A stretch of DNA of 62,431 bases, filler included, from Diploschistes diacapsis (Eukaryota): the NCBI GenBank assembly GCA_023645945.1. It is 5 parts of 5 records of this genome, joined end to end, with 100 filler letters (N's around TTAATTAATTAA, not from the genome) between each part and the next. Parts side by side here need not be neighbours in the genome. Positions count along the whole stretch, not along the records: positions 25,041 to 37,454 come from JALAIB010000746.1; 4 more parts are not named here. One strand, given 5' to 3'. Positions 453 through 62,431 of the stretch are shown here, piece by piece; the first letter of the stretch is position 1, and every line of letters begins with the position of its first letter. The translations under genes were made by a program, and so were the position numbers. Under the pieces are notes generated by a model that searched no databases, was not told the origin of the DNA, and worked only from the letters and a program-made list of their open reading frames with translations.

Positions 453-2391
453 TTATTCCAACTCGGTGAAGACTCCTTCCAAGCTTCTCTTCCCTTCACT
501 CCCAATTTCCACTTCCCGCCCCTGTACTACGCCCTTCTCCCGCCCCTGTGTGGGAGCCTGATCCCCCGTCTCTTCGCTGCTTGTACCCTTCAACTCCTGA
601 CCCCTCTCGCTTCGCCTTCGATACTGTTGCCTGCCTCTTGTTCCCCAGTCCAGCCCCATAATCAGAACCAATATCCCGTAAACGACGCACACATAGTTAA
701 TGTTCGCCGCCCCAACTGGTAATAAAGACGGAAAGGAATACATCACCAGCGTGAAGAGCGTCCACGCAAGCAGAACGTAATTACACACACGACCAAAGGA
801 GCCTGTCCAAAAGGGCCCTCTCTTGTGTGGGGGAAGCAGGGTGTTTCTTCCGCGCAAAAGGAGGCAGAGGATGGGGATCGAGTAGGAGACGTAGAGTAGG
901 ACTACCGAGGCTGTGACCATACTATTCAAAGTCAAGGGAATGGAGGTTAGCCCGTGAAGACTGTATACTGGCCAAGAATATAGACGCAGGCAGAGTACCG
1001 GTAGATGGGGAAAGAAGAAAATAGCGGCTTACCTGTTGAATGCTGTACTCGATCCAAGGTAGAGGAGGCCAAGCAAGGCAACGATAACGCAGCTGACCGC
1101 ATGCGCCCTGAGCGGCACGTCCAGCTGAGGTTGCACGTGCGCCAGAAATTTGGAGCACGGCAGCCCTCCGTCGCGCGCGAAGCTCCAGCACAGTCTCGAC
1201 TGCCATGTGTGTGAAGCAACCAGACATCCAACTGCAGTAGCAACGACAAAGCTCTCCAGTACAATCGCCCCGCCCCAACTCCCCAGGGCCTGGTGGAAGA
1301 GCTCTAAGATAGGGACAAGAGTTGGCGTATTCACCACCGCTTCAAGATCCCGCATGCTGAAGAACATTGCGATGCTATAGAACCAACTCGTCACGAACCC
1401 GACGGCAATCGTGCCCATGATGGCAAAAGGAACGACTCTCTCGGGTCGAGGTACCTCTTCGGCCATGTGCGTCGCGCAATCGAGGCAGGCGAAAGCCCAG
1501 TTGGTGTTGACGAGACCGACAACAAAGGCCATGCCATCAGAAGACCAGCCGGTGTTGTTTGTGAAGGTGGCGAATATGAAGCTGGGGGGTTGGTGGCTGG
1601 GCGCTTTGGAGGGAACAACAGTAAGAATAATAAGGAAGGATAGGAGGGAGATGTAGAGGGCGCAGTTGGCGATGGAAGGGAGGAGCTTGCCGGATGTGTT
1701 GAAGATGAAGGCGAAGGCGTTGACCGCTTGGAAGGCAAGGACTACGTGCCATGCTTGGATCGTGCTGAAGAGGTTAGGCAGAGGTACGATACGTGGAAAT
1801 GACGATTAGGGAGGATAACATACAGATCTGGATGGGAGAGCTGGTAGACGCCTATCAGGCCGCTAGCTGCTGCCAGGGCGACGCTCGCGGATGTGAAAAC
1901 TTATGATTGGGAAGTAAAGTAAGCCAAGACGAAATAGAGACAACACGGCGGCGGACGACGGAAGGCTAATGCTCACCAGCACCGGCCCACGCGAACCACC
2001 CTGTAGTATATGACGCCAGATCCGCATACCTCCTACCGGCCAGCTCGTTTGCCCAAAAGTATTGCCCTCCAGCGTTCGGAAACGCGCTGGCAAGCTCAGA
2101 CAAAGATATGCCCACACAGATAGAAACGAGTGCCATGAAAATCAACCCATATATGCACAGCAGCGGACCCCCTGAGTTGATACCGGTGACCAGAGCAGCT
2201 GAGATTGCGAACCACGAGTTTGTCAGCGAGAACCCAACACCCAGGACCGACCACATGGAAAAGTTTCGCCGCATGTCCTGCGAGTAGCCCATCCGCGCCA
2301 GCTTTACAGCGTCCGAGTCTACCAAGTTCATTACCTTCCCTGCTGCTGGAGCCATGTTTTCAGAGGAGCGGTGGGCGGTTGAGGCCATCAT
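453..2391 (-). CDS. HNM1: APC-superfamily amino-acid/choline permease (HNM1-like); exons about 2391-1977, 1900-1824, 1764-1033, 921-453
   Basis: Spliced translation gives RNFSMWSVLGVGFSLTNSW, SELASAFPNAGGQYFW, DCATHMAEEVPRPE and SRLCWSFARDGGLP. The three GT..AG introns keep the frame. Confidence 0.85.
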
Positions 2392-3839
2392 GCAAATGTA
2401 TGGACCCGGTGGGATTTGGCGATGTTTCCAAGGGGCTGTGGAATGCGAGGTAACGAGGGATCTAATGTAGGCCGCTGAGGGTTACTGAATAGCCATGCAG
2501 GGCCCTGTAAGCATAATGTTCTTATCTATGGGGAATACAACAGTCAACAGTCGCGGAACCATTGGCCGAGCTGCATCATTCTCTGCCGGTCGATCACTTT
2601 AGAGATATATGGGATAAGAATATTAAATAGTGTATCAAAGGCGATGCAGAAGTAGCGGAAAGAAAAAAGTATTGGATAGTAGACATGAGGGAGCGAAAAC
2701 GAGATTTTGAGCACATGTGATTAGAAATCTGACGAAAAGGGAGGAAACCAAGGCAAACTGGAGTGAGATAGCGACGCAGCGTGAAACCCCAGCATCAACG
2801 AAAATGGAATAACGGGAATTGTGTTGAGAGCAGGGTACAGGAAGATCACTATATTTTGATAACCTTCAATGCCATTGGAGTCTTCGAGCAGGGAGCGGCC
2901 TGGTGTCCGAGAGCGTCCAATGCGCCACGTCCTGCAAGTGCTGCATGCCGTACATGTACTCGACGTTCCCAGCAGTATGGATGCTGGTGATGCAGAAGCA
3001 GGCCCAGTGTAATCGTATTACTGAGAATGGTATCGACTTCCCGTCTGATCACCGATGACAGGTCGGGCTGTGTGCTGTGGATGCAGGAGACTCCCTCGAG
3101 CATGGCATTGCATACTACTAGGTACTTACTGCAAGGTGGGGGTGCGGCCGAGGGTGCGAAAGGTCCGAGGGGCGTCTTACTTTCCCCAGTACGTATGCCT
3201 TCATAGCATGTATGTAGATACATAGGTACAATAGGTACAATGCAATTGTCCGAAGAGAATGACTGGCGGCTAGGGCGAATCACGCCAGAAAAAGTCTGAA
3301 GAGGATGAAGGTCGGCCCCCGGAAAGTCTAGAGAGATCGCTGCTGTGCAACCAAAAACCCCCGACTCGTGGCTTGTGTAACCTACATCAGACGAAGGTTG
3401 GGAAGGGCAATTCAACCCAACATCTTGCGACGTCGGCTGTGAGTGTCAACTATTCTCTCACGGCATCACCGCAGTCAAGCTAGGGTCAAGTATCTCACTA
3501 TAGCCATGACAACAAGAGAGCTTTTACTGCCTGATAGGATAAAGGGAGACCCAAATACTTGCACGTCAGAGCCGAAAGGAGGTCAAGGCACAAGATGCAG
3601 GCACATGGAATGTTGCGTTTTCAAAACAATGCTCCTGTATTGATACTCTGATCCTCTATTCCTAACTCCACCTTTCCCACCGACGTCCGTGTCGGCGTCA
3701 GCGGGCAGCCGACAGTATCAAAGGAGCGACAAGAACTTTTCCTAGTAAACCAAGTCCACCCACAAGCGTCTCCAAACAAGAGCCTCTTGCGCCCAGCGTC
3801 ATGCATTGCTTCATCGATAGAGCGTCTCTGTGACGTGGC

Positions 3840-19988: not shown

Positions 19989-22760
19989 TATTATCAGCCG
20001 CTGACCCGAAGGGGCTTAGCGCTTAAGACTAACCCAAAGAGGTTTAATCTCAAGCCGGCGTCAGGGTCATAGTCACAGCGGTATTGAGGCAAAGTATTGT
20101 TTGTGGAGTTATGGACGACACTTGCATTACAGATACATAACATCTCTGTAGATGTTACATCTTTCTTCCTTTCCATTCATACCGTTATTACATAGAGCAC
20201 CTACCTGGGTAAGTGTATCCAGTCAATAATCAAGCCTCTATTTCAATTGCCTACTTCGAGATTGTTACTACGTGTGCCCAACAAACCCAAATATCGACAG
20301 TTATGAGCCCGGTATGCGCACACCCTGTCGCTAGCTCTACCAATCTATCTCGAAGCAGTCAACAAGCACCACGTTCAAAAGCCTACCTGGCGTAGACCAG
20401 GAAGGTGCATCGCGAGACTCTCAGGCCCAGCCATACTCGACATCTCCGTGAAGGCTCTGATTGCCACGAGCAGACACACTATCAGTATCAGGTAGATACT
20501 TTGATCAAGCGCGAAGCATACAGCATGCCGTTGCCTACACAAAACCAGTTCATGTTGAGCAAACCTGCCGGTTGGGAGACATGGATCTCCAGTATTCGGC
20601 ATCAAGCCACGTCTCTAGACGTCTGGCATATCATCAAAACCAAGCATAACAGAAAATCCTGCATGCCTTGTGGAACCAATTCAACGAAATATGAATGTTA
20701 TTCTTGCCATCGCAGACGTAGTTGCAAAGACCGCCGAATTCGAGATCTACGAGATTCGAAAAGAAAGCTATGAATCGACTATCGGAACCATGAGAGGCAG
20801 CATAAAAGCCTCGGCGAAATAACGTCCTTTATACTCAACAGGATAGATGCCGACATCAACATTTATATCAGGAAGACGGAGTCTCACCCATAGGATATCC
20901 TCCGAGCACTCAAGCAGCGCCTCGCTCCAAGCTCTGAAGCCCAAAGATCGAGCGTCGAGCAAGACTATCACCGACTGCGCAAAGGTTCCACCAACCAGGA
21001 TATCCTCAAGTGAGTAGGTGACTGGACACTTACCATTGCTCGAGCAGAAGACGTGGACCTCGCTGAAGCCCAAGGAACCGCCCAGTACCAGACTTCCTAC
21101 CTGCAATCGACACTAAATACCCTCCATTTTCAGTCTCATACATGATGGACCCCGAAAGGGCAACACAGCTGAGATGCACCCAGTCATTGACCATTTCCGC
21201 AGACAGTTTGGGCTCCGAGCATCCCAAAATGGCAAGAGCAGGAGCCACTCTGCCCTTCAGTCTGCAACCACGGCAAATACTACACCCGCGCCAAACACCG
21301 CTTTGTTCAAAGGAAGGCCTACAGCCCCCCAATGCCTATGTGGTATCAAGCACTGGTACAGCGAGCGCTACTACCTCAACCCAAGCGCTGGGCCAGTGAG
21401 CTGGAAACCGACACCAGAAGCTCAAGCAAAGGTTAAAGAAGCCTTGAAAGATATTACAGTTAAGGCACGCATTGAAAGGAACCCCAAAAAGAACCAAGAT
21501 AGTACGGCAGCGGGTAACTTCACAAAGCCAAGGACATCAGCCACCTCCAGGGTCGTTTGATCAAAACGACAGCAAGCCACTAGGAACCTTTACGACCATG
21601 TCCAATCACGTCTTTACTGTAGAGCATCCACTACGAAAGTCTTGGCTTTGGGACTCAGGCACAGACGCTCATATCAGCAATATCGCTATGAAAGAACGCT
21701 TTAAGGACTTCCGCCGAGAATCTCCAAACGAGTACGTGATCTCGGGCAGACGCATGTCGATCAAAGGCTACAGAGAGGTCACAATCAACGTCACCAAGAA
21801 CGGTACACCGCAATTAATTGATGTCCCTCAATGTCGCCTATACCCCTGACTACCTTAGGAGCCTTGTCTCGCTACACAAAGCAGAGAGTAAGGGGGTGTA
21901 TCGAGATCACCTAAACATGAGGCTCACAAAGGGGAGCCAATTGTTCTGCAACGTAAAAACTTACGGTGGACATTATCTTCTCAGACAACACCACTGTTCA
22001 GCCTAACTAAAATTCGGTGATAGCAAACCATGCAATAAACTCAGCAACTGCTACGGACTGGCGTGCAATACTTGGACACGGATAAGTAGAAGCCATAAAG
22101 CATCTAAAGGCATCTGTTGAGGGGGTGAAAATGCTACATCCCAGGAAACAGCTCCGGAAACCAGCAATGTGAGCCATATGCTATATCAAAATCTCAGCAA
22201 ATTGTCTCACGGAGTACGTCGAAGTCAGAGCCTTCAGCTAGATCGTCTGAACGCATATCATTCGAGATAAAATTCAGTTCAATCCAGCATACAACTCGGA
22301 CCAATGGGTATCACACGTTGCCTGCGACTATTCAGATTTTATTTAGTCTATACTCACTAGCTGAATACATCAGCACCACAGATTCTTCTTGAGCCATTGA
22401 TTTAATTAAAGGAGATGTCAAGGCGAAGTTATTTCATCCGTACTGATGGTGAAACGGCTCTCGGCATCGCTTTTGAGGATCAATTATCTACCAAAAGTAT
22501 CACATTCGAGGCGTCGAGGCGTCCGCACCCAATACACCTGAGCAAAACGGCCAGGCCGAACGCAAAGGGGACATGCTGGCCACGAAAGCTCGCACTATGC
22601 GCATTGCCGCCAACATCTCTCACAACATGTGTGGCCAGAAGCAATGCAGGCCGCAGGGTATATTGCCGACCGCACGCCTATGATGAAACATGGCTGGAGA
22701 ACACCATTCGAGATAGTGAAGCAACGTGCTCCTAATCTCTCACACCTCAAAGCTGCGCCT
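19989..22760 (+). mobile_element. Degenerate Ty1/Copia LTR retrotransposon (5' LTR, PBS, gag, protease, integrase; RT/RNase H not recognisable)
   Basis: LTR-like segment ending ...ATCGACA (20299), then PBS GTTATGAGCCC. Gag-like WETWISSIRHQA and CLCGIKHW; protease WLWDSGTDAHISN; LNVAYTPD; integrase IRTDGE and TPEQNGQAER...WPEA...TPFE. Many frameshifts and stops. The LTR start is approximate. Confidence 0.85.
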
Positions 22761-23354
22761 AACCACGCTCGGGACAGCTTTTGAATCCGTAAAGATAAAC
22801 GCCGGCGCCAAACCTATTTGGAACGGCAATGCTGCCTTGCATCACGTAGGAAAGCCAGAAAGCTATCGCAGATCATATTCTTAGATGGTTTGTAAAGAGC
22901 TCGTTCTGATTTCTCCCTAGATTATGAAGGTCGAAAGCGAATGCAGAAACAAAGTCATAAAGGTTGTTATAAAAATGCAAATACTCGGGTCCTCGTTTGA
23001 TGACGCAGGAAAGTGATGAGACAGACGAACTTAGCCGAACAGTACAGTATTGCTGCAATATGTTTAACTCAAGCAAGAATGATGCGAGGGCAGCACCCAA
23101 AAGTCGGGCAAAGATCAGGCGAGGGCTCTCGGCCATCACCCCTAGTCTGTAAGAGGGGTGCTGCCGACGCAGATTTTCGGGGCATTATTGTAGCCATTTC
23201 ACGTGGTGATGGAGTACGTTAACTAACCCCTTAAGAGTATTAATTGTGAATATGACTGTAGTTGACTATGAACTTGACTCCTTGAGGGGACTCAATTCTG
23301 GCTGTAAAAGGGGATTCCATTGGAGGAAGAAATACGGATGGTATATACCGACGG

Positions 23355-23686: not shown

Positions 23687-24269
23687 CTAGCGCCTGGAAT
23701 CGTGCCACAAGTTTTCCGGCAGATTCGTCCACCGTATTGCCCCATAGTCCGCTGTACCCTTCAGCGTCCCATCGCCCAGCTTCACAACCCCGAACTTGAG
23801 CATGCGCGGATCGACGCCCAACATCTTCTTGACAGCCTCCTGGGTGGTGGGCGCGCAGTCGAAACGTACGACGAAGTGGTGGCCCTGTATGTAGCGCACC
23901 TGGTGCTTCGAGATGGGTTTGGTGAGCAGATACGTGCCCCAGTTTGCGATGCTGCGCACGATACCCCGCTGGGAGAGTACGATCTGGCCCGTGGCGCGGA
24001 CGAGTCTGTGGAGGAGAAGGCAAGGTCAGCAGTAATACGGAGGCAGAAGGCTCGATGGGATTCGGCCCGGCGGAAGGGGCGACTCTATACAAGAGCCTAG
24101 AAACGGGGCGTAGGGGAGGGATGCGGCGTACTCTTTCACCTCCGAAAGCCGCCCTGGACGGACCTGCAAGGGCTCGCGTTAGCAGGTGGTCTTCTCGAGA
24201 GCTTGCGCACCCCATAGTGATGGATGCAGCGCAGCCGATACGCACCACACCAATGAGCTCGTACAGCAT
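23687..24269 (-). CDS. MRP17: Mitochondrial ribosomal protein bS6m (37S Mrp17), 3 exons
   Basis: Spliced product MLYELIGV|VRPGRLSEVKE|LVRATGQIVLSQRGIVRSIANWG...GHHFVVRFD...LGVDPRMLKF. Introns are GTGCGT..CAG and GTACGC..CAG. Confidence 0.9.
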
Positions 24270-24584: not shown

Positions 24585-24940
24585 ATGGCTTCGGCGTCCA
24601 CCGCACGAAGCTTCGCTCGCCTACGATGCTTCAATCACCCAAGTCTCTGCTCTCACAATGCCTCACGGCAAGCACCAGTGTCACGGTTACACAACCCTGT
24701 GCGGAGCTTCTCCTCCGCTCGAAGCTGTAAGTAACTACCGATCGAACCCCGCGGGGGGCGGGGGGGGGGACTCCATGTACCTTTCCTGTATTACCCCGTC
24801 ACGCAAACGCCCGACCTGCTTAGGCCTCAGCTTGTCGGAGGCTAACGCGCCGACGACAGTCCGAGAGAAATACTACAACGAGTCCCACGAATGGGTCGAA
24901 ATCTCCCCGGACAAGAAGACCGGTACCCAACCCCCCCAAC
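24585..24940 (+). CDS. GCV3: Glycine cleavage system H protein, 5' part (truncated by the gap)
   Basis: Mitochondrial presequence MASASTARSFARLR..., a GTAAGT..CAG intron, then KYYNESHEWVEISPDKKTG. Confidence 0.85.
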
Positions 24941-25040
24941 NNNNNNNNNNNNNNNNNNNNNNNNNNNNNNNNNNNNNNNNNNNNTTAATTAATTAANNNN
25001 NNNNNNNNNNNNNNNNNNNNNNNNNNNNNNNNNNNNNNNN
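24941..25040. other. Artificial contig-joining spacer
   Basis: 44N-TTAATTAATTAA-44N. Confidence 0.98.
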
Positions 25041-25999
25041 GAGCAGGGAGGGCATGCTTGGTTGCTGCGCTTGTGGTTGTGGTTTTTGATGGGTTGTGTA
25101 CGGTGGAGATGGGGATGGGGCGCGCAAGGCGCGGGTGGTTCGAAGGCTCGGCGGCGGCGCCGGGCGACTGCGGTGCGTCGAGGGTCAGGGGACGGGGAAA
25201 TGAGACGGTCGAGCAGGGTGTCGTGAGATTGGAGGCTTTGTGCTGGTGTTGGCGATATGTTTCTTGTTGCTGGCGGGACCGAAGGTGAAACTTTCATAAG
25301 TTTGGCTTGCATCTTTCTTTGCTACAGCAGATCTCCCGTGCCAAGATGCGGGCTTGGCATCGCTTCGAGGTTACTAATCTCTTCTTCTCTGCACCCCGGT
25401 CTACGTATTACCTTACGACCGAAAGTGTTCCACTCTGGATAGGTACCTATTAGAGCGACTTGGGTGCTTCAGCTCAGAAGCTCATGATACTGGCATACTG
25501 TCTCGTCATTGTCGACTCGACACACTGGACTGTTCCTTGACAGACCCTGATCGCCTTTTGCAGCGACACCGCTATTGCGACGAGGTCACATCGGCAGGCA
25601 GAATCTCATATAGTTCGAGAGCAGTACGGCGTCGGTATCTACCTATAATATCTTGGAGACTGGCTCTGGATGGAATGGAAAGCTACGTTATCCCAACTCA
25701 GGTGCCACGAAGTAGAACAAAACTAGCTACTCGACCCTAGAATGTGCGCTGTAACAGTCTACAGCTTACTCACTTCGGCCTCGGGAGAGATCAACACTGC
25801 GTTCATAATCTTGTTTAGAAGTAAAAGTTAGATCCTTGGTTAGCAGCAGCAACGGCATTGAATGTCGAAGAAAGCATAAACTTTTCACAGTGATCGTTAT
25901 GAATTCGATACAACCGCATCAGCCCTAAGCAACCAGATAGTTAATAACAATGATTCATGATAGGTTATATAATTTGGATATGAGAACATCATCAAACAT

Positions 26000-26121
26000 G
26001 TCGCTTTAGCTCACTTGGGAGAGCGCCGTATGTTAAACTCTCTAAACCTTCTGATGAAAGACTAATTATTCATCAGAGACTGAAGATCTGGAGGTACTGT
26101 GTTCGATCCACAGAAGCGACA
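26000..26121 (+). tRNA. tRNA-Phe(GAA): tRNA-Phe (anticodon GAA at 26082-26084), exons 26000-26027 and 26077-26121, with a 49-nt non-canonical intron between positions 28 and 29
   Basis: Joined exons read GTCGCTTTAGCTCACTTGGGAGAGCGCC|AGACTGAAGATCTGGAGGTACTGTGTTCGATCCACAGAAGCGACA. Acceptor stem 7/7, D stem 4/4, anticodon stem 5/5, T stem 5/5; core nearly identical to yeast tRNA-Phe. TATA-like element near 25967 and T5 terminator at 26126-26130. Confidence 0.93.
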
Positions 26122-26961
26122 AATATTTTTGCAATATAATCCCTTTTAGTGCTTAGCAAATACGTTTGTTAATTTTATGTAGCCTGTCTTGCAAAACAGC
26201 CTTGTTTAATCTCTACTATAAAGCCGCGGATACCACAGAGCCTAGTGTTTGTGTGAAGCGAGGTAATGTACTGGTTGTTGTCGCCGAGGCGGTACAAGGA
26301 CCGCCTCAGCAGTACTTGGAACACTAGAACTAGATCTTCTACGCATATCTAAATGTTCTCTCACGCCAGGCGGTCAAGTCGTTTAGTATGCTTTGAACCG
26401 CTGGGACTCGAGCTTCTTTGTGGTTTACTTTGATAACATTGTGGCCTAGAGAATCAAGCGAATGGTTGAAATCTTAGGATCTTCGCTACTACGTTTTACT
26501 CTCACTCCCAAGAGCTGAGAGGACTAGCTCTTTCCCTCGGCAGGCACAAAAAGCCTTCGAAAAGATTGAATTGACAGACGGGATTTAGGCTTCTGGAAAG
26601 CATTGTGGCATATTCTCGTCACTTCAAAGGTATTCAAGCGATAGAGTTCAATTCGTTGAGAGCGCAAATCAATTTCTCCAGCTTGGAACGAACGACCTTG
26701 GCGGATTGTGTCTACTCAGACGGACTCCAAGTTCGCATGTCATGCAGAAGAAAAAGCCAGTTCCACGCGACTATGAACTGAGCCAATCGTTTCGCTTAAA
26801 TACAATAGCAGATACCGACAAGCACATGGAAGCCCGAAATGGCAGAGGACGTCGAGGCCAATGATTGCACCGTTCCAAACACTGGGACTAAACTGCTCAC
26901 GTCCCCGTCCCAAGACTCTCAATCTATTGTGGTATCTCCCTCCAGAATCGCTTCGAGATTT

Positions 26962-27834: not shown

Positions 27835-29496
27835 CTATTCCAACTCTTTCTTGATCCCCCCATCTCGCGCAGCCTCCCACACGCACCTCTCACAAACGCA
27901 ATCCCCTCCCAGCGGGCCCTGCATCCACTCCCTCCTCTCCCGTACGGGCAACTCCACATCGCAATAATGATTCAGAATCTCCTCTCCAGCGCGAACAGCC
28001 CACTCCTCCTTCCCACCAGCACCACCTGCAGCCGCAGTCCTCTCCCCCCACCCAACAACCTCCTCCCTCCTCCTAGCCCACATTTTCATGCTCCCCTCCC
28101 ACTCCCACCGCACGTTCGGCGCGCAGCTATGGTTCACAAGACACCACAGCGGATGCACCGCGCAGCCCTCCGGCTTGCCCGTGCGCGGGTTCGGCCGCAC
28201 GGACGCGACGCTCCGGAACTTGGCGTAGAGGGTGTTGAAGACCCAGAAGTCGTGGCGGTCGATGGCCGCGTAGATGTCGACGCCCATGCTCTCGAGCGCG
28301 TGCAGGGGCCGCTGGATGTTGTATTTGAAGGAGAAGGGGAGGGAGGTTTTGCCGGGTTGCTCGAGGGAGGCGGGGGACTTGGGTGGCGCGGACAGGGGCG
28401 CGGGATCGAACTCGCCCCAGATGGAGGCCGTTTCGGAGAGGGCGAGGGGGTGCGTGTTTTGGGTCGAGGCCATGGCGAGGGCGCGGGCCAGGAGGAGGAA
28501 GTAGAGAGCGTCGGCGGTCTCGTGGGGCGGGGTGGTTGCGGTGAGGTCGTGGACGGAGGCGTCGCATATCGCAAGGTGGTAGGATAGGTTGGCTTGTTCC
28601 ATGCAGTTTTGGTCGCAGTACACGGCATTGCAGCCATCGCAGGCGTAGTAGTAGTCAGTGTTATGTGTCGGGTGCGGCGCTGCAGCAGAACAGGCGTCGC
28701 AGCGATACTCGTCTGGCACGATACACGCGGTTAGGAAACTCTTCTCCTTGAGGATTGCTGCTCCAGGTGGTATGTCCTCCTTTGCAAACATGCCCAGCTG
28801 CCGGACAATGCCGGATCGCCCGTCAAGGGCTGGCAACTCCACGGCCCGGATACAGCATGAAGGAGCCACTTGGGCGAGCCGTTTATTAAGTGAGCGAACA
28901 TAACCTTCATTGTATCGGCTGGGTTCGTAGCTATTCCACGGATAAATCTCCCTGCGAACAAAACCGCGGCTGGGGAGGTCGGAGTGTTTCAAGGTGGTCA
29001 GATCAACAATTTGGCCCTCTTTGGCCATGATTCCCCGGTAGCACTCAAAGACATAGTTATTCGCCGCTGGATATCGTGAATCATTACTATCATACCTTCG
29101 CGGCAGCTCCTTAGCAAATACATTCGCCGCCTGCAGATCATTGCACTTGATCAGGCAGCGTATCAGCCTCTTGTATACTGTTACCACAAGCTTGTTCTTC
29201 TGGGATCGGAACTCGCCCGGCGTCTGATGGGGAAATGCAAGGAGAAGGGCAGTGAAAGCTTTCTCGTGGTATTCCCCATCTGGGTCCTCGGCCTCGTCTA
29301 TAAGACTTAGTGCTTTGTAGGCATCGCCGGCGCTCAGGTCAGGGTAGCCCAGCGATTCGTATGCTTCGGCGCGCTCAGAAAGAACGGGCGCGTTGTATGG
29401 GTCATGTAGAAGCCTGGCTGTCAAGACCTTGAGACGTTCCAGAAGTCCAATATGTGATTCTACGGTGAGTGCTTCATTTACCTTTTCAGGCTCCAT
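27835..29496 (-). CDS. SET and MYND domain protein-lysine methyltransferase (SMYD-like)
   Basis: GMFAKEDIPPG (SET-N), MYND CDAC...CDGC...YCDQNC...H...C, LVNHSCAPN, GEEILNHY and post-SET CVCERC. Intronless, 553 aa. Confidence 0.9.
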   Translation of the reverse strand: MEPEKVNEALTVESHIGLLERLKVLTARLLHDPYNAPVLSERAEAYESLGYPDLSAGDAYKALSLIDEAEDPDGEYHEKAFTALLLAFPHQTPGEFRSQKNKLVVTVYKRLIRCLIKCNDLQAANVFAKELPRRYDSNDSRYPAANNYVFECYRGIMAKEGQIVDLTTLKHSDLPSRGFVRREIYPWNSYEPSRYNEGYVRSLNKRLAQVAPSCCIRAVELPALDGRSGIVRQLGMFAKEDIPPGAAILKEKSFLTACIVPDEYRCDACSAAAPHPTHNTDYYYACDGCNAVYCDQNCMEQANLSYHLAICDASVHDLTATTPPHETADALYFLLLARALAMASTQNTHPLALSETASIWGEFDPAPLSAPPKSPASLEQPGKTSLPFSFKYNIQRPLHALESMGVDIYAAIDRHDFWVFNTLYAKFRSVASVRPNPRTGKPEGCAVHPLWCLVNHSCAPNVRWEWEGSMKMWARRREEVVGWGERTAAAGGAGGKEEWAVRAGEEILNHYCDVELPVRERREWMQGPLGGDCVCERCVWEAARDGGIKKELE

Positions 29497-53000: not shown

Positions 53001-54999
53001 CACGGCTGCTCGCATATCGGATGCAAGTCAATGGATACCGTATGCAAGTGGTTTGCTTTCGGGCAGCTGCAATGCTTTTTCCTGGACGTACAATATCCTC
53101 CTCCGCCACATATGTGGTTAGCAGACCGAATGTGAGCTGCGACGGACCGCTGCGCCCTCCTCTCCACTCACTCTCTCGTTTCCAAGGCCAGTCAGACGAA
53201 GCGTGCCTTGACTTCGGGCAAATGGGCCGAGATGACGCCTCCCTTCTCCCTCCAATCTCCCCGAATGCTGCGGCCCATGCTGTTCAAAGTCCGGTGCTGG
53301 CCGTCAGAATGGCTGCTGGCTTGCGTGTTGCTTTGTCCCTTGAACCGATATGACCGAACGCGCGTTCGAGGAGATTATTGAAAAACCGCTGGAACATCCC
53401 ATATAAATAGCGTCAGGAGGGGTTTGTCCATGTCCTTGCGTGATTCGAGCGCAGTCCATAGATTGGGGTCGCCTGAAGTTGGGTATGATGAAACACTCTC
53501 AGATAAGAATCTCTAACTTGTCCAAGCAAACTTTAAAGTCAGTCGTAGTGTGAGTACAACGAGGAACAAGGCCAACACAAACCGCCAGGCGTTTTATTCG
53601 TTATTCGAGCCTTGCGTCGTGTTTCACCTTTCCTCATGGGCTCCACGAGCAACACCAAGTGAAGCCGTGTATGTTCTTGTTATCCAGAACGAAAAGCTCG
53701 CCCACACCGACTTCCACACCGCTTAAGACGTATATTTGCTCTTCGGGTTGCTCACAATGCCTATTCGTCCGCTTTGATTACACTCGGAGGGTGCAGCATC
53801 AGCCGTAGCTGATATTTTCCCTTGTCGGTTTTGAGCATTACCTGCCCTAACTTGACCGACCAGCACCAGCGACCGGGGGACGCGACGGCCACCGACGGCC
53901 ACAGTTCACCAGAGCGACTCAGGCTCGAGATAGAAGACTGGCGTAGGAAGGTTTGCGGTCCCTCTGTACACCAGTCCTTCTGGCGCACATGTGAAAAGTC
54001 TGGCCTTCACATTCTAGCCTACCGAACAGCATCGATGCGCAAGCCTTCGAGAGAGCAAGAAGCAGGGAGAGTGAAAGTGCGCATTGTTGCACCATCCTGC
54101 AAGCTCAAGCGGCTGCAAAACACTATTCACGCCATGCCTTTCCTTACGTAGTGGTCAACGACATACACGGCTTCGGGTTCAACTTGGAAGAAATAGGAAC
54201 ACGAGCGTTTCAAGCAAACCAGCCAGAGATGACAAACGGGATCGATGCACTCACGCTGCAGACGCACAACCGTTTACGCCGTGTGTGCAATGAACCGCTA
54301 GTTTCGGTATCCTCTATGGGTATCGGTAACCTTAACGATCACATGCTGCAGCGGTCACCCCTCGATTTAGAAATTGACAAATGTTTTGCGCGTGCTCCTC
54401 CTGGCTTTTCGCAAGATTTCATATACGCATAAATTCCCAAAAGGGAAGCAATTCAGGGTAATCGAGCAGGCATGGGCCTTCAATCACACGCTGCTCGTTC
54501 CAGGGTCTGGATGAGCTGCCGGAGAAGTGTGTACAGAGTACGAGGGTAGACAGCGACCGGTGTAGATATCCGTAATTGCTATTGTATCCGACATACTTGA
54601 GCTGGATCGATGAGAGTTGGTCAGACCGGGCCTTGGTATAGAAACGCAATGGAGGAGAAAAAGCATGGCTGAAGGGTGGATGAGATGCGGTAGGTCAATC
54701 AACCGGATGTCGCAGTGACCGTGAGGGCTGCAGGCTCAATAGCTTTGCTCTTTTTTCGTGCTGATTTTGTGGCTGCTATGATTCAATGAGAGCTTTCAGG
54801 CGAGCTAAAATTGGGACGCGTACACAACAAGTAGGGACACAAGAAGCAGACCTTTCCCATCCAGGTATGTCAGTTGATTGGAAATGACGCTTCGATTGTT
54901 GTCGGAGACAAAGGTAGACAAGGTCTGTGCGGAAAGAAAAGCTCCTCCGCGCTCGAGATAAGCGAGAAGTTAGCTAGTTCTTAGCAGTTGTTGCCGGCA

Positions 55000-61543: not shown

Positions 61544-62431
61544 GCAGGCACGGAATGGTGGAACCTCCCTGGATCCGGATCCGAATTTGTGCAAACAATG
61601 GAATGTACCTAGTACTTTTTTCTTTCGTTATCGAGACCTGTCGGCATCACGGCAGTAAGCAAAACAGGAGGAAGCGTACGGTTGGGGGGGGCACGGTCGC
61701 AACGAGAAAAAGCTTTTCCCACGGTTGACGTTGACGACTTCTTGTCCCGAGTTGTGTCATCGGTGGGTGCGTGCAGCTGGACCGGAAACCCTTTTTTCAC
61801 GGAGGGGGTGGGGATGCTATTATTTCGAACACGACATGTCGGATGTTGGTTAGAGAGCTGCGGCATACTGTGTGATTTGTGATCCGGCTCGAGGAGGACG
61901 GCGAGGATGCGCACAGAGCAGTACGGTACGTACGTACATACATGTGTCCGGATGGTCTGTCAAGTTCGCGATCATCGCCGACAGCTGTTGCTTTGTTTGT
62001 CCGTGGTTGGAATAGGGGTAAGGGGTCAAGAGAGATAGATCGTTATACCCCCCCAATCTATGGCCTGCATCTTAACGCCATAGAGAAAGCAACTTCAAAG
62101 TTTATCCGGGCTCCTCCGCTGACTCGGACCTCGGACATTTCACTTCTGCTCTCTGCCGCTCGAAAATCTGCTTTGCCTTCGCTTTTTGCTTTTTGCCTGT
62201 ACGACACCAGCCCTGCACGATCACTCTGTTAGCAATGCAAAACCAACCTGCATGGCCGATCAATAATAATCCCTGCAGCACATCATGACGATCGTCCAGC
62301 CACGGCCACCTTTGCTCACTGCACACTGCACGCTGCACACTGCAACTGCCGGCAAGCCACCACACACCGAGGGCCACCTACTCAAGTCTTCGCTGCAACC
62401 TTTTTTGCTTTGCTCCAACCTTCCCACGCTC

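Follow-up and report, generated by a model that had tools for sequence, protein, structure and literature searches.

A 62-kb stretch of DNA from the Diploschistes diacapsis assembly GCA_023645945.1, hereafter the window (the whole stretch, along which the coordinates and the + strand run), carries at 26000-26121 (+) a phenylalanine transfer RNA gene, tRNA-Phe(GAA), whose anticodon stem is interrupted on its 5' strand by a 49-nucleotide (nt) insert that bears the signals of a messenger RNA (mRNA) intron. Judged from its sequence, this is probably a working nuclear gene of a lichen-metagenome ascomycete, split between nt 28 and 29 by a true spliceosomal intron of the U2-type GT-AG class, which would be removed by the spliceosome. 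The anatomy of the gene, its splice signals, the absence of a bulge-helix-bulge (BHB) motif, the persistence of the insert in a relative whose exon 2 is conserved, and the presence of analogous genes in other fungi are what the sequence comparisons show.

Anatomy of the interrupted tRNA-Phe gene

Exon 1 (26000-26027, +) comprises nt 1-28 of the tRNA, with the 5' strand of the acceptor stem, the D arm, G26, C27 and C28, and exon 2 (26077-26121, +) comprises nt 29-73, with the rest of the anticodon arm including the anticodon GAA (26082-26084, +), the variable loop, the T arm, the 3' strand of the acceptor stem and the discriminator A. The insert occupies 26028-26076 (+) between them. Once it was excised by script, ARAGORN called a 73-nt tRNA-Phe(GAA) with fully paired stems at this locus, in agreement with the preliminary description, which had claimed that removal of these 49 nt restores the cloverleaf. 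In the stem-pair table of the spliced gene the stems measure 7/4/5/5 bp and all 21/21 pairs are standard; U33, G37, G18 and G19, the T54-C56 run, A58 and the discriminator A are in place as well. The tertiary and identity nucleotides that we take to be the expected set (U8, A14, G18 G19, G20, A21, U33, G37, G53-C56, A58, C61, A73 and R15:Y48) are all present apart from the 15:48 pair, which is C:A here. Checking of the coordinates also bore out the earlier assignment of the insert to the junction of nt 28 and 29: the sequence CTGAAGA of the anticodon loop is unbroken and holds no intron at 37/38, the canonical position for the SEN/TSEN endonuclease.

The insert opens with the 5' splice site GTATGT (26028-26033, +), contains the branch-site motif GACTAAT (26060-26066, +), whose presumed branch A, position 26065, stands 11 nt short of the intron end, and closes with the 3' splice site CAG (26074-26076, +), each read from the sequence at the place where it had first been described. 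A GTAYGT-like donor, a CTRAY branch motif and a YAG acceptor, the attributes of a U2-type GT-AG intron, are thereby found together in 49 nt. No end duplication or inverted repeat of the insert was seen by eye. In the minimum-free-energy fold a 10-bp hairpin is predicted at 26049-26078 (+), where 26049-26058 pairs with 26069-26078; the loop carries the branch motif, and the stem buries the 3' splice site.

Signals of the type used by RNA polymerase III (Pol III) accompany the gene. An A-box-like sequence, TAGCTCACTTGG, lies at 26007-26018 (+) inside exon 1 and a B-box-like sequence, GTTCGATCC, at 26101-26109 (+) in the T arm of exon 2, both assigned by comparison with what we take to be the consensus sequences. 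A run of five T's (T5) at 26126-26130 (+), 5-9 nt past the discriminator, is the likely Pol III terminator, and the longest T run within the intron is 2. A TATA-like element of presumed function, TATATAA, stands at 25966-25972 (+), 28-34 nt 5' of the tRNA start, so that both flanking elements named in the preliminary description are at their places.

Chance controls and comparison with mRNA introns

The likelihood that such an arrangement appears by chance was estimated by taking all GT..AG segments of 20-150 nt from either strand of the window, removing them one at a time and feeding each product to ARAGORN. The 60,774 removals yielded 8 tRNA calls, every one at the tRNA-Phe locus, and the regular Phe cloverleaf came only from removal of 26028-26076. 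For a random 49-mer of window composition, the joint probability of having GTAYGT, CTRAY and YAG in place is about 1.3e-6. The same signal set, allowed to extend over 35-65 nt, occurs at 4 places in the window, one of which is the insert. Another is a putative mRNA intron of 59 nt at 1765-1823 (-), which links two open frames and has the same GTATGTTA start as the tRNA insert.

The mRNA introns of the window are putative, since they derive from a heuristic that joins open reading frames (ORFs) and not from verification by transcripts; they measure 47-148 nt and follow GTRNGY, CTRAY and YAG. Examples from the ORF-joining heuristic are two of 47 nt, at 24164-24210 and 53101-53147, and one of 52 nt at 61817-61868. 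The insert lies at the short end of this size range with its signals also within range, consistent with the earlier remark that it resembles the mRNA introns of the window in both respects.

Interrupted tRNA-Phe genes in other fungi

Metagenomes were scanned with a pattern in which a tRNA-Phe D arm and anticodon arm had to lie 32-62 nt apart and neither GT nor AG was demanded. Three loci were recovered, representing two distinct further genes, as L002 and L003 are identical in tRNA and insert sequences and L001 is a different gene. All three are tRNA-Phe(GAA) genes split at nt 30/31, on the stem strand that is also broken in the window gene: L001 (662-769) by a 35-nt insert, GTACGG...CAG, L002 (9986-10109) by a 51-nt insert, GTACAT...TGACTAAC...TAG, with the exon before it ending in CAG, and L003 (1266-1389) by an insert of 51 nt. 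This GT..AG placement at nt 30/31 is one possible phasing of the interruption. The insertion site in L001 and L002 reads (C/T)AG|A, and no clear CTRAY was found in the 35-nt L001 insert. Removal of the insert gives a tRNA-Phe in each of the three loci, and among 23,869 GT..AG removals over L001-L003 ARAGORN called tRNAs only at the tRNA-Phe genes. The same pattern gave 0 matches in prokaryote genome contigs and 0 in viral contigs.

All three loci lie on fungal contigs, as judged for L001 by a Zn(2)-Cys(6) domain (Pfam Zn_clus) and for L002 by a small nucleolar RNA (snoRNA) of an Aspergillus-type family plus typical fungal genes. The snoRNA match, at 3564-3653 (-) of the L002 contig, is to Afu_264, an Aspergillus fumigatus box C/D snoRNA family in Rfam; it scores 50.1 bits against a gathering score of 40 and supports a filamentous-ascomycete origin of the contig.

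Across the three distinct genes (window, L001 and L002), all 21/21 stem pairs are standard; nine of them vary on both sides and 0 on one side only. The unpaired positions are invariant at 29/31, the 2 variable ones being 15 and 48, where both partners have changed. Neither L001 nor L002 has the hairpin predicted at 26049-26078. When the intron interiors of the window, L001 and L002 are compared, their similarity does not rise above that of shuffled sequences: 431, 498 and 1064 shuffles out of 2000 attain the observed score in the three comparisons. Common descent of the three inserts was considered and isn't supported, the interior similarity being within the shuffle range, and a single old origin is not demonstrated because the interiors match no better than shuffles. 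The difference between the 28/29 and 30/31 placements may reflect a 2-nt slide or independent gains, both of which fit the data.

A run of T5 or longer follows within 25 nt 3' of all three distinct genes, no T4 occurs in any of the three introns, and AT-rich stretches are also present upstream of L001 and L002. These features bear on the polymerase that would produce the precursor. In an alternative that differs from a spliced Pol III transcript in the polymerase only, the tRNA would be carried in a longer RNA polymerase II (Pol II) transcript, be spliced co-transcriptionally by the spliceosome and then be released by RNase P and RNase Z. The TATA-like element upstream of the window gene would suit such a precursor, as would the fact that spliceosomes act chiefly on Pol II transcripts (PMC8527467), but the A- and B-box-like sequences, together with the downstream T runs and T4-free introns of the three genes, make up a typical Pol III pattern, and splicing of a Pol III transcript is possible, as the U6 gene demonstrates (PMC5855946). 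A Pol II precursor is thus regarded as very improbable.

Retention of the insert in relatives

Contigs of three sequencing runs, X1, X2 and X3, were compared with the window at 80% likeness. The run that matches the stretch best is labelled a lichen metagenome and may be where this DNA came from, and relatives were found in a rock metagenome and in the coded 'organism A' (X3). X1 is identical to the window, and the X2 and X3 contigs are about 5-9% diverged and both retain the insert. Contigs of X1, X2 and X3 all span the tRNA gene together with its insert, and the insert is therefore no assembly artefact, since contigs from three separate runs cross it.

In X3, the listed differences within the gene are 26031 T>C, 26039, 26040, 26046, 26051 C>G, 26066 T>C and 26067 T>C, and all 7 fall in the insert. 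The first turns the 5' splice site GTATGT into GTACGT; 26066 T>C, found in both X2 and X3, turns GACTAAT into GACTAAC, and 26067 T>C is also common to both. The X3 changes spare GT, G5, T6, the branch A and CAG, and for the 3' splice site CAG no difference is listed in X2 or X3. One pair of the 26049-26078 hairpin is disrupted by 26051 C>G. The X3 changes thus keep or improve the predicted splice signals while the interior diverges, which is the outcome in an orthologue that the preliminary description had set as a check on a spliceosomal intron.

The X3 differences amount to 7/49 in the intron, 0/46 in exon 2 and 23/253 substitutions in the downstream flank; by Fisher's test exon 2 differs from the intron with p = 0.013 and from intron plus flank with p = 0.021. 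The difference table leaves out rows within 30 nt of contig ends, where exon 1 of X3 falls; by our count, rows outside exon 1 account for 30/32 mismatches in the X3 contig that spans the gene, so that exon 1 can hold 2 at the most. In X2 the listing covers 9/24 mismatches of the spanning contig, and the exon comparison is confined to X3.

Two further observations concern these runs. Directly 5' of the tRNA gene, at 25859-26024, X3 has two alternative contigs with depths of 73.7 and 28, one of them with 19 gapped positions, and they may represent two alleles or strains. In X4, another lichen metagenome of the same study, a 55-nt contig carries an uninterrupted tRNA-Phe in which D-arm sequence is followed directly by 35 nt matching exon 2 (26077-26111); it presumably belongs to another organism, because X4 shares almost no words with the stretch.

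The retention of the insert has to be weighed against the possibility that the locus is a dead tRNA-Phe copy, in which a reverse-spliced intron or introner-like element inactivated one of several genes and the exons stayed intact through recency or gene conversion. Several points weigh in that direction or against a working gene. Expression is deduced from sequence features, as are the polymerase, the splicing and the machinery that would perform it. The pair C15:A48 (window 26014 and 26096), which replaces the G15:C48 of L001 and L002, is an unusual Levitt pair and could be a defect. The conservation of the exons comes from one relative, X3, at a divergence of only some 5-9% for X2 and X3, the contrast between exon and flank reaches only p ~0.02, and gene conversion from intact paralogues could likewise keep exons clean. 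The intron interiors of the different lineages have no demonstrable homology, the compensatory changes in the stems may predate the insertions, and the pattern scan detects only genes with intact D and anticodon arms.

Against a dead copy stand, on the other hand, the unchanged exon 2 of X3 beside a diverging intron and flank, with splice signals kept or improved, and the flawless cloverleaves of two more distinct genes from fungi, each likewise split by a GT..AG insert. A repeat or introner origin was also considered, and a search of the window for the 49-mer, allowing as many as 3 mismatches, gave no second copy. In X1, X2 and X3 no contig joins across the insert and no other contig covers exon 2, so that the contigs run unbranched through it; this would argue against an identical donor for conversion, with the limit that contigs and filters do not prove absence. 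A dead copy is considered unlikely, and a working gene with a spliceosomal intron remains the preferred reading.

Absence of a bulge-helix-bulge motif

Since an insert in a tRNA could also be excised by endonucleases, the three distinct genes were scanned for BHB motifs over 16 offset combinations per gene, the criterion being junctions in 3-nt bulges across a 4-bp helix, or the relaxed form HBh', in a scan that had no archaeal positive control. No BHB motif fits in any of the three genes, the best candidates having 2-3/4 central pairs and flanking helices of at most 3 bp, and none was seen in the minimum-free-energy folds. Compared with shuffled sequence, the anticodon arm with its intron gains no stability on folding (z 0.1 to 1.0), and no structure is common to the three genes. 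The three inserts share signals and neither structure nor interior sequence, the pattern to be expected if recognition is by signal.

These results concern the possibility that the tRNA gene works but loses its insert by a route other than the spliceosome, whether through the tRNA splicing endonuclease and ligase, active at a non-canonical site as in red algae, nucleomorphs and archaea, or through another endonuclease. There are precedents that would fit: ectopic tRNA introns located in stems are known, many of those in the Guillardia nucleomorph having no defined BHB (PMC3978253), and dedicated factors have been proposed in lichen fungi for the removal of degenerate group I introns from ribosomal RNA (rRNA) (PMC8527467). 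Beyond the missing BHB and the lack of any shared or better-than-shuffled structure, however, such a route would leave aside three independent splice signals that are present in the window gene and kept in its relatives, and the fact that these signals are what the three inserts have in common. Removal by an endonuclease is judged quite improbable, more so than a dead copy, and excision by the spliceosome is the explanation retained here.

Detection by standard tRNA finders

The preliminary description had warned that standard finders could miss or reject the gene, and they do. On the intact window ARAGORN reported 0 tRNAs, and Rfam gave nothing at gathering score; with the threshold relaxed to E<=10 there was still no match to tRNA. 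ARAGORN misses all four genes (window, L001, L002 and L003), and the Rfam tRNA model catches only L001, which has the shortest insert, at 48.3 bits. In its intron mode ARAGORN proposed at the locus a 95-nt 'tRNA-Leu(taa)' with a 29-nt intron, which was rejected as spurious given its 4-bp anticodon stem with a U.U mismatch and its long unpaired arm. An intron-encoded snoRNA was likewise rejected: cmscan at E<=10 returned only weak box C/D and sRNA matches of 13.6-19.6 bits, against gathering scores of 43-229, with E values of 2.6-9.9, i.e. noise.

As described in PMC8450103, tRNAscan-SE seeks non-canonical introns solely via archaeal BHB models. In practice, fungal genomes may be annotated as being without a tRNA that they possess, and the GT..AG-removal scan offers a simple route to further such genes.

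Genomic context

The window is intron-rich and of ascomycete character. It encodes a SET-domain protein at 27835-29496 (-), for which the nearest Atlas clusters are ascomycete, and a ribosomal-protein-S6 domain at 23687-24025 (-). A by-eye likeness of 24700-24960 to the glycine-cleavage H protein was discarded, no Pfam match being found. At about 22400-22800, overlapping open frames have translations that resemble, by eye, fragments of retrotransposon integrase. The window holds 352 N, and one N run appears as X residues in the frames at about 24990-25040, some 1 kb 5' of the tRNA gene; because of this N content the window is taken to be a draft scaffold.

Proposed processing and its scope

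For a working gene with a spliceosomal intron, the following course can be proposed. The gene would be transcribed, most likely by Pol III, and no Pol III stop is expected within the intron because it has no T4 run. U1 would pair with GUAUGU, branch-site factors and U2 would bind GACUAAU, and the CAG 11 nt downstream would serve as the acceptor. Two transesterifications would then join 26027 to 26077 by an ordinary phosphodiester bond and release a lariat, so that the tRNA endonuclease and ligase would not be required. The 5-bp anticodon stem and the cloverleaf could form only in the spliced RNA, and RNase P, RNase Z and CCA addition would finish the tRNA. The intron may have originated by reverse splicing into an abundant RNA or by insertion at a protosplice-like site, two modes of intron birth on which such a case bears.

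A wider proposal, which we hold tentatively and a little short of evenly balanced, is that certain ascomycetes, among them lichen-associated species, possess tRNA introns of a fourth class, made up of true spliceosomal introns in the 5' strand of the tRNA-Phe anticodon stem at nt 28/29 or 30/31. Most or all of the tRNA-Phe in these fungi would come from the interrupted gene, translation would consequently need the spliceosome to act on a Pol III transcript, and such genes would be systematically absent from fungal tRNA annotations. If this holds, the coupling of the spliceosome to translation could limit growth, as has been proposed for the spliceosomal introns of lichen ribosomal DNA (rDNA).

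Comparison with known systems

In the textbook view, the intron types of eukaryotic nuclei are separate and each has its own machinery (PMC12530127). Canonical tRNA introns of eukaryotes are, like the present one, inserts in a nuclear tRNA that have to be removed before the anticodon arm is complete, but they sit at 37/38 and depend on the SEN/TSEN endonuclease and a ligase, whereas the insert described here lies at 28/29 (30/31 in L001 and L002) and carries mRNA-intron signals. Ectopic tRNA introns of archaea, of red algae such as Cyanidioschyzon merolae and of nucleomorphs have been described through the BHB motif (PMC3978253). They too lie off 37/38, some of them inside a stem, and are missed by finders in eukaryote mode; they differ in having a BHB fold cut by the tRNA endonuclease, in place of which the window gene has GT, a branch motif and AG.

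Closer parallels are found among structural RNA genes with spliceosomal introns, which are known for U6, a Pol III gene, and for the U1, U2, U5 and rRNA genes (PMC5855946). The mRNA-type introns in fungal U6 genes, those of fission yeast included (Tani and Ohshima 1989, 1991; Canzler et al. 2016, cited in PMC5855946), share with the tRNA insert a small structured host of Pol III type, canonical 5', branch and 3' sites with the rest unconserved, and a lineage-specific occurrence. U6 small nuclear RNA, however, sits where the spliceosome has its active site, which explains insertion by reverse splicing, and a tRNA has no such link.

The U3 snoRNA of fungi is a capped Pol II transcript and, in contrast to the present host, not a tRNA. 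Its genes carry normal spliceosomal introns in a small non-coding RNA, like the one proposed here; these cluster in the 5' half of the gene at positions characteristic of the lineage (PMC5832005). The rDNA of lichen fungi also carries spliceosomal introns, one of which yeast was able to splice out of transcripts made by Pol I (PMC8527467; Bhattacharya et al. 2000; Cladonia grayi). The resemblance extends to lichen-associated ascomycetes as carriers, to short introns (57 bp in the case cited there) with mRNA-type signals and to an abundant structural RNA that is not made by Pol II. The host is different, namely an rRNA made by Pol I in the nucleolus in one case and a 73-nt tRNA in the other, cut inside a helix that can form only after splicing.

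No description of a spliceosomal intron in a tRNA gene was found in the full-text literature searched, the coverage of which excludes subscription journals and supplements, and the list of non-coding RNA hosts given in PMC5855946 (U6, U2, U5, U1 and rRNA) omits tRNA. If the proposed reading is correct, tRNA would join U6, U1, U2, U5, U3 and lichen rRNA as a non-mRNA host of spliceosomal introns, a spliceosome-dependent tRNA would cross the boundary between intron types, and natural spliceosomal processing of a probable Pol III transcript would extend beyond the RNAs of the spliceosome itself. Among the systems compared, the interrupted tRNA-Phe gene is best placed with the ectopic spliceosomal introns of structural RNA genes, for which tRNA would be a new host.

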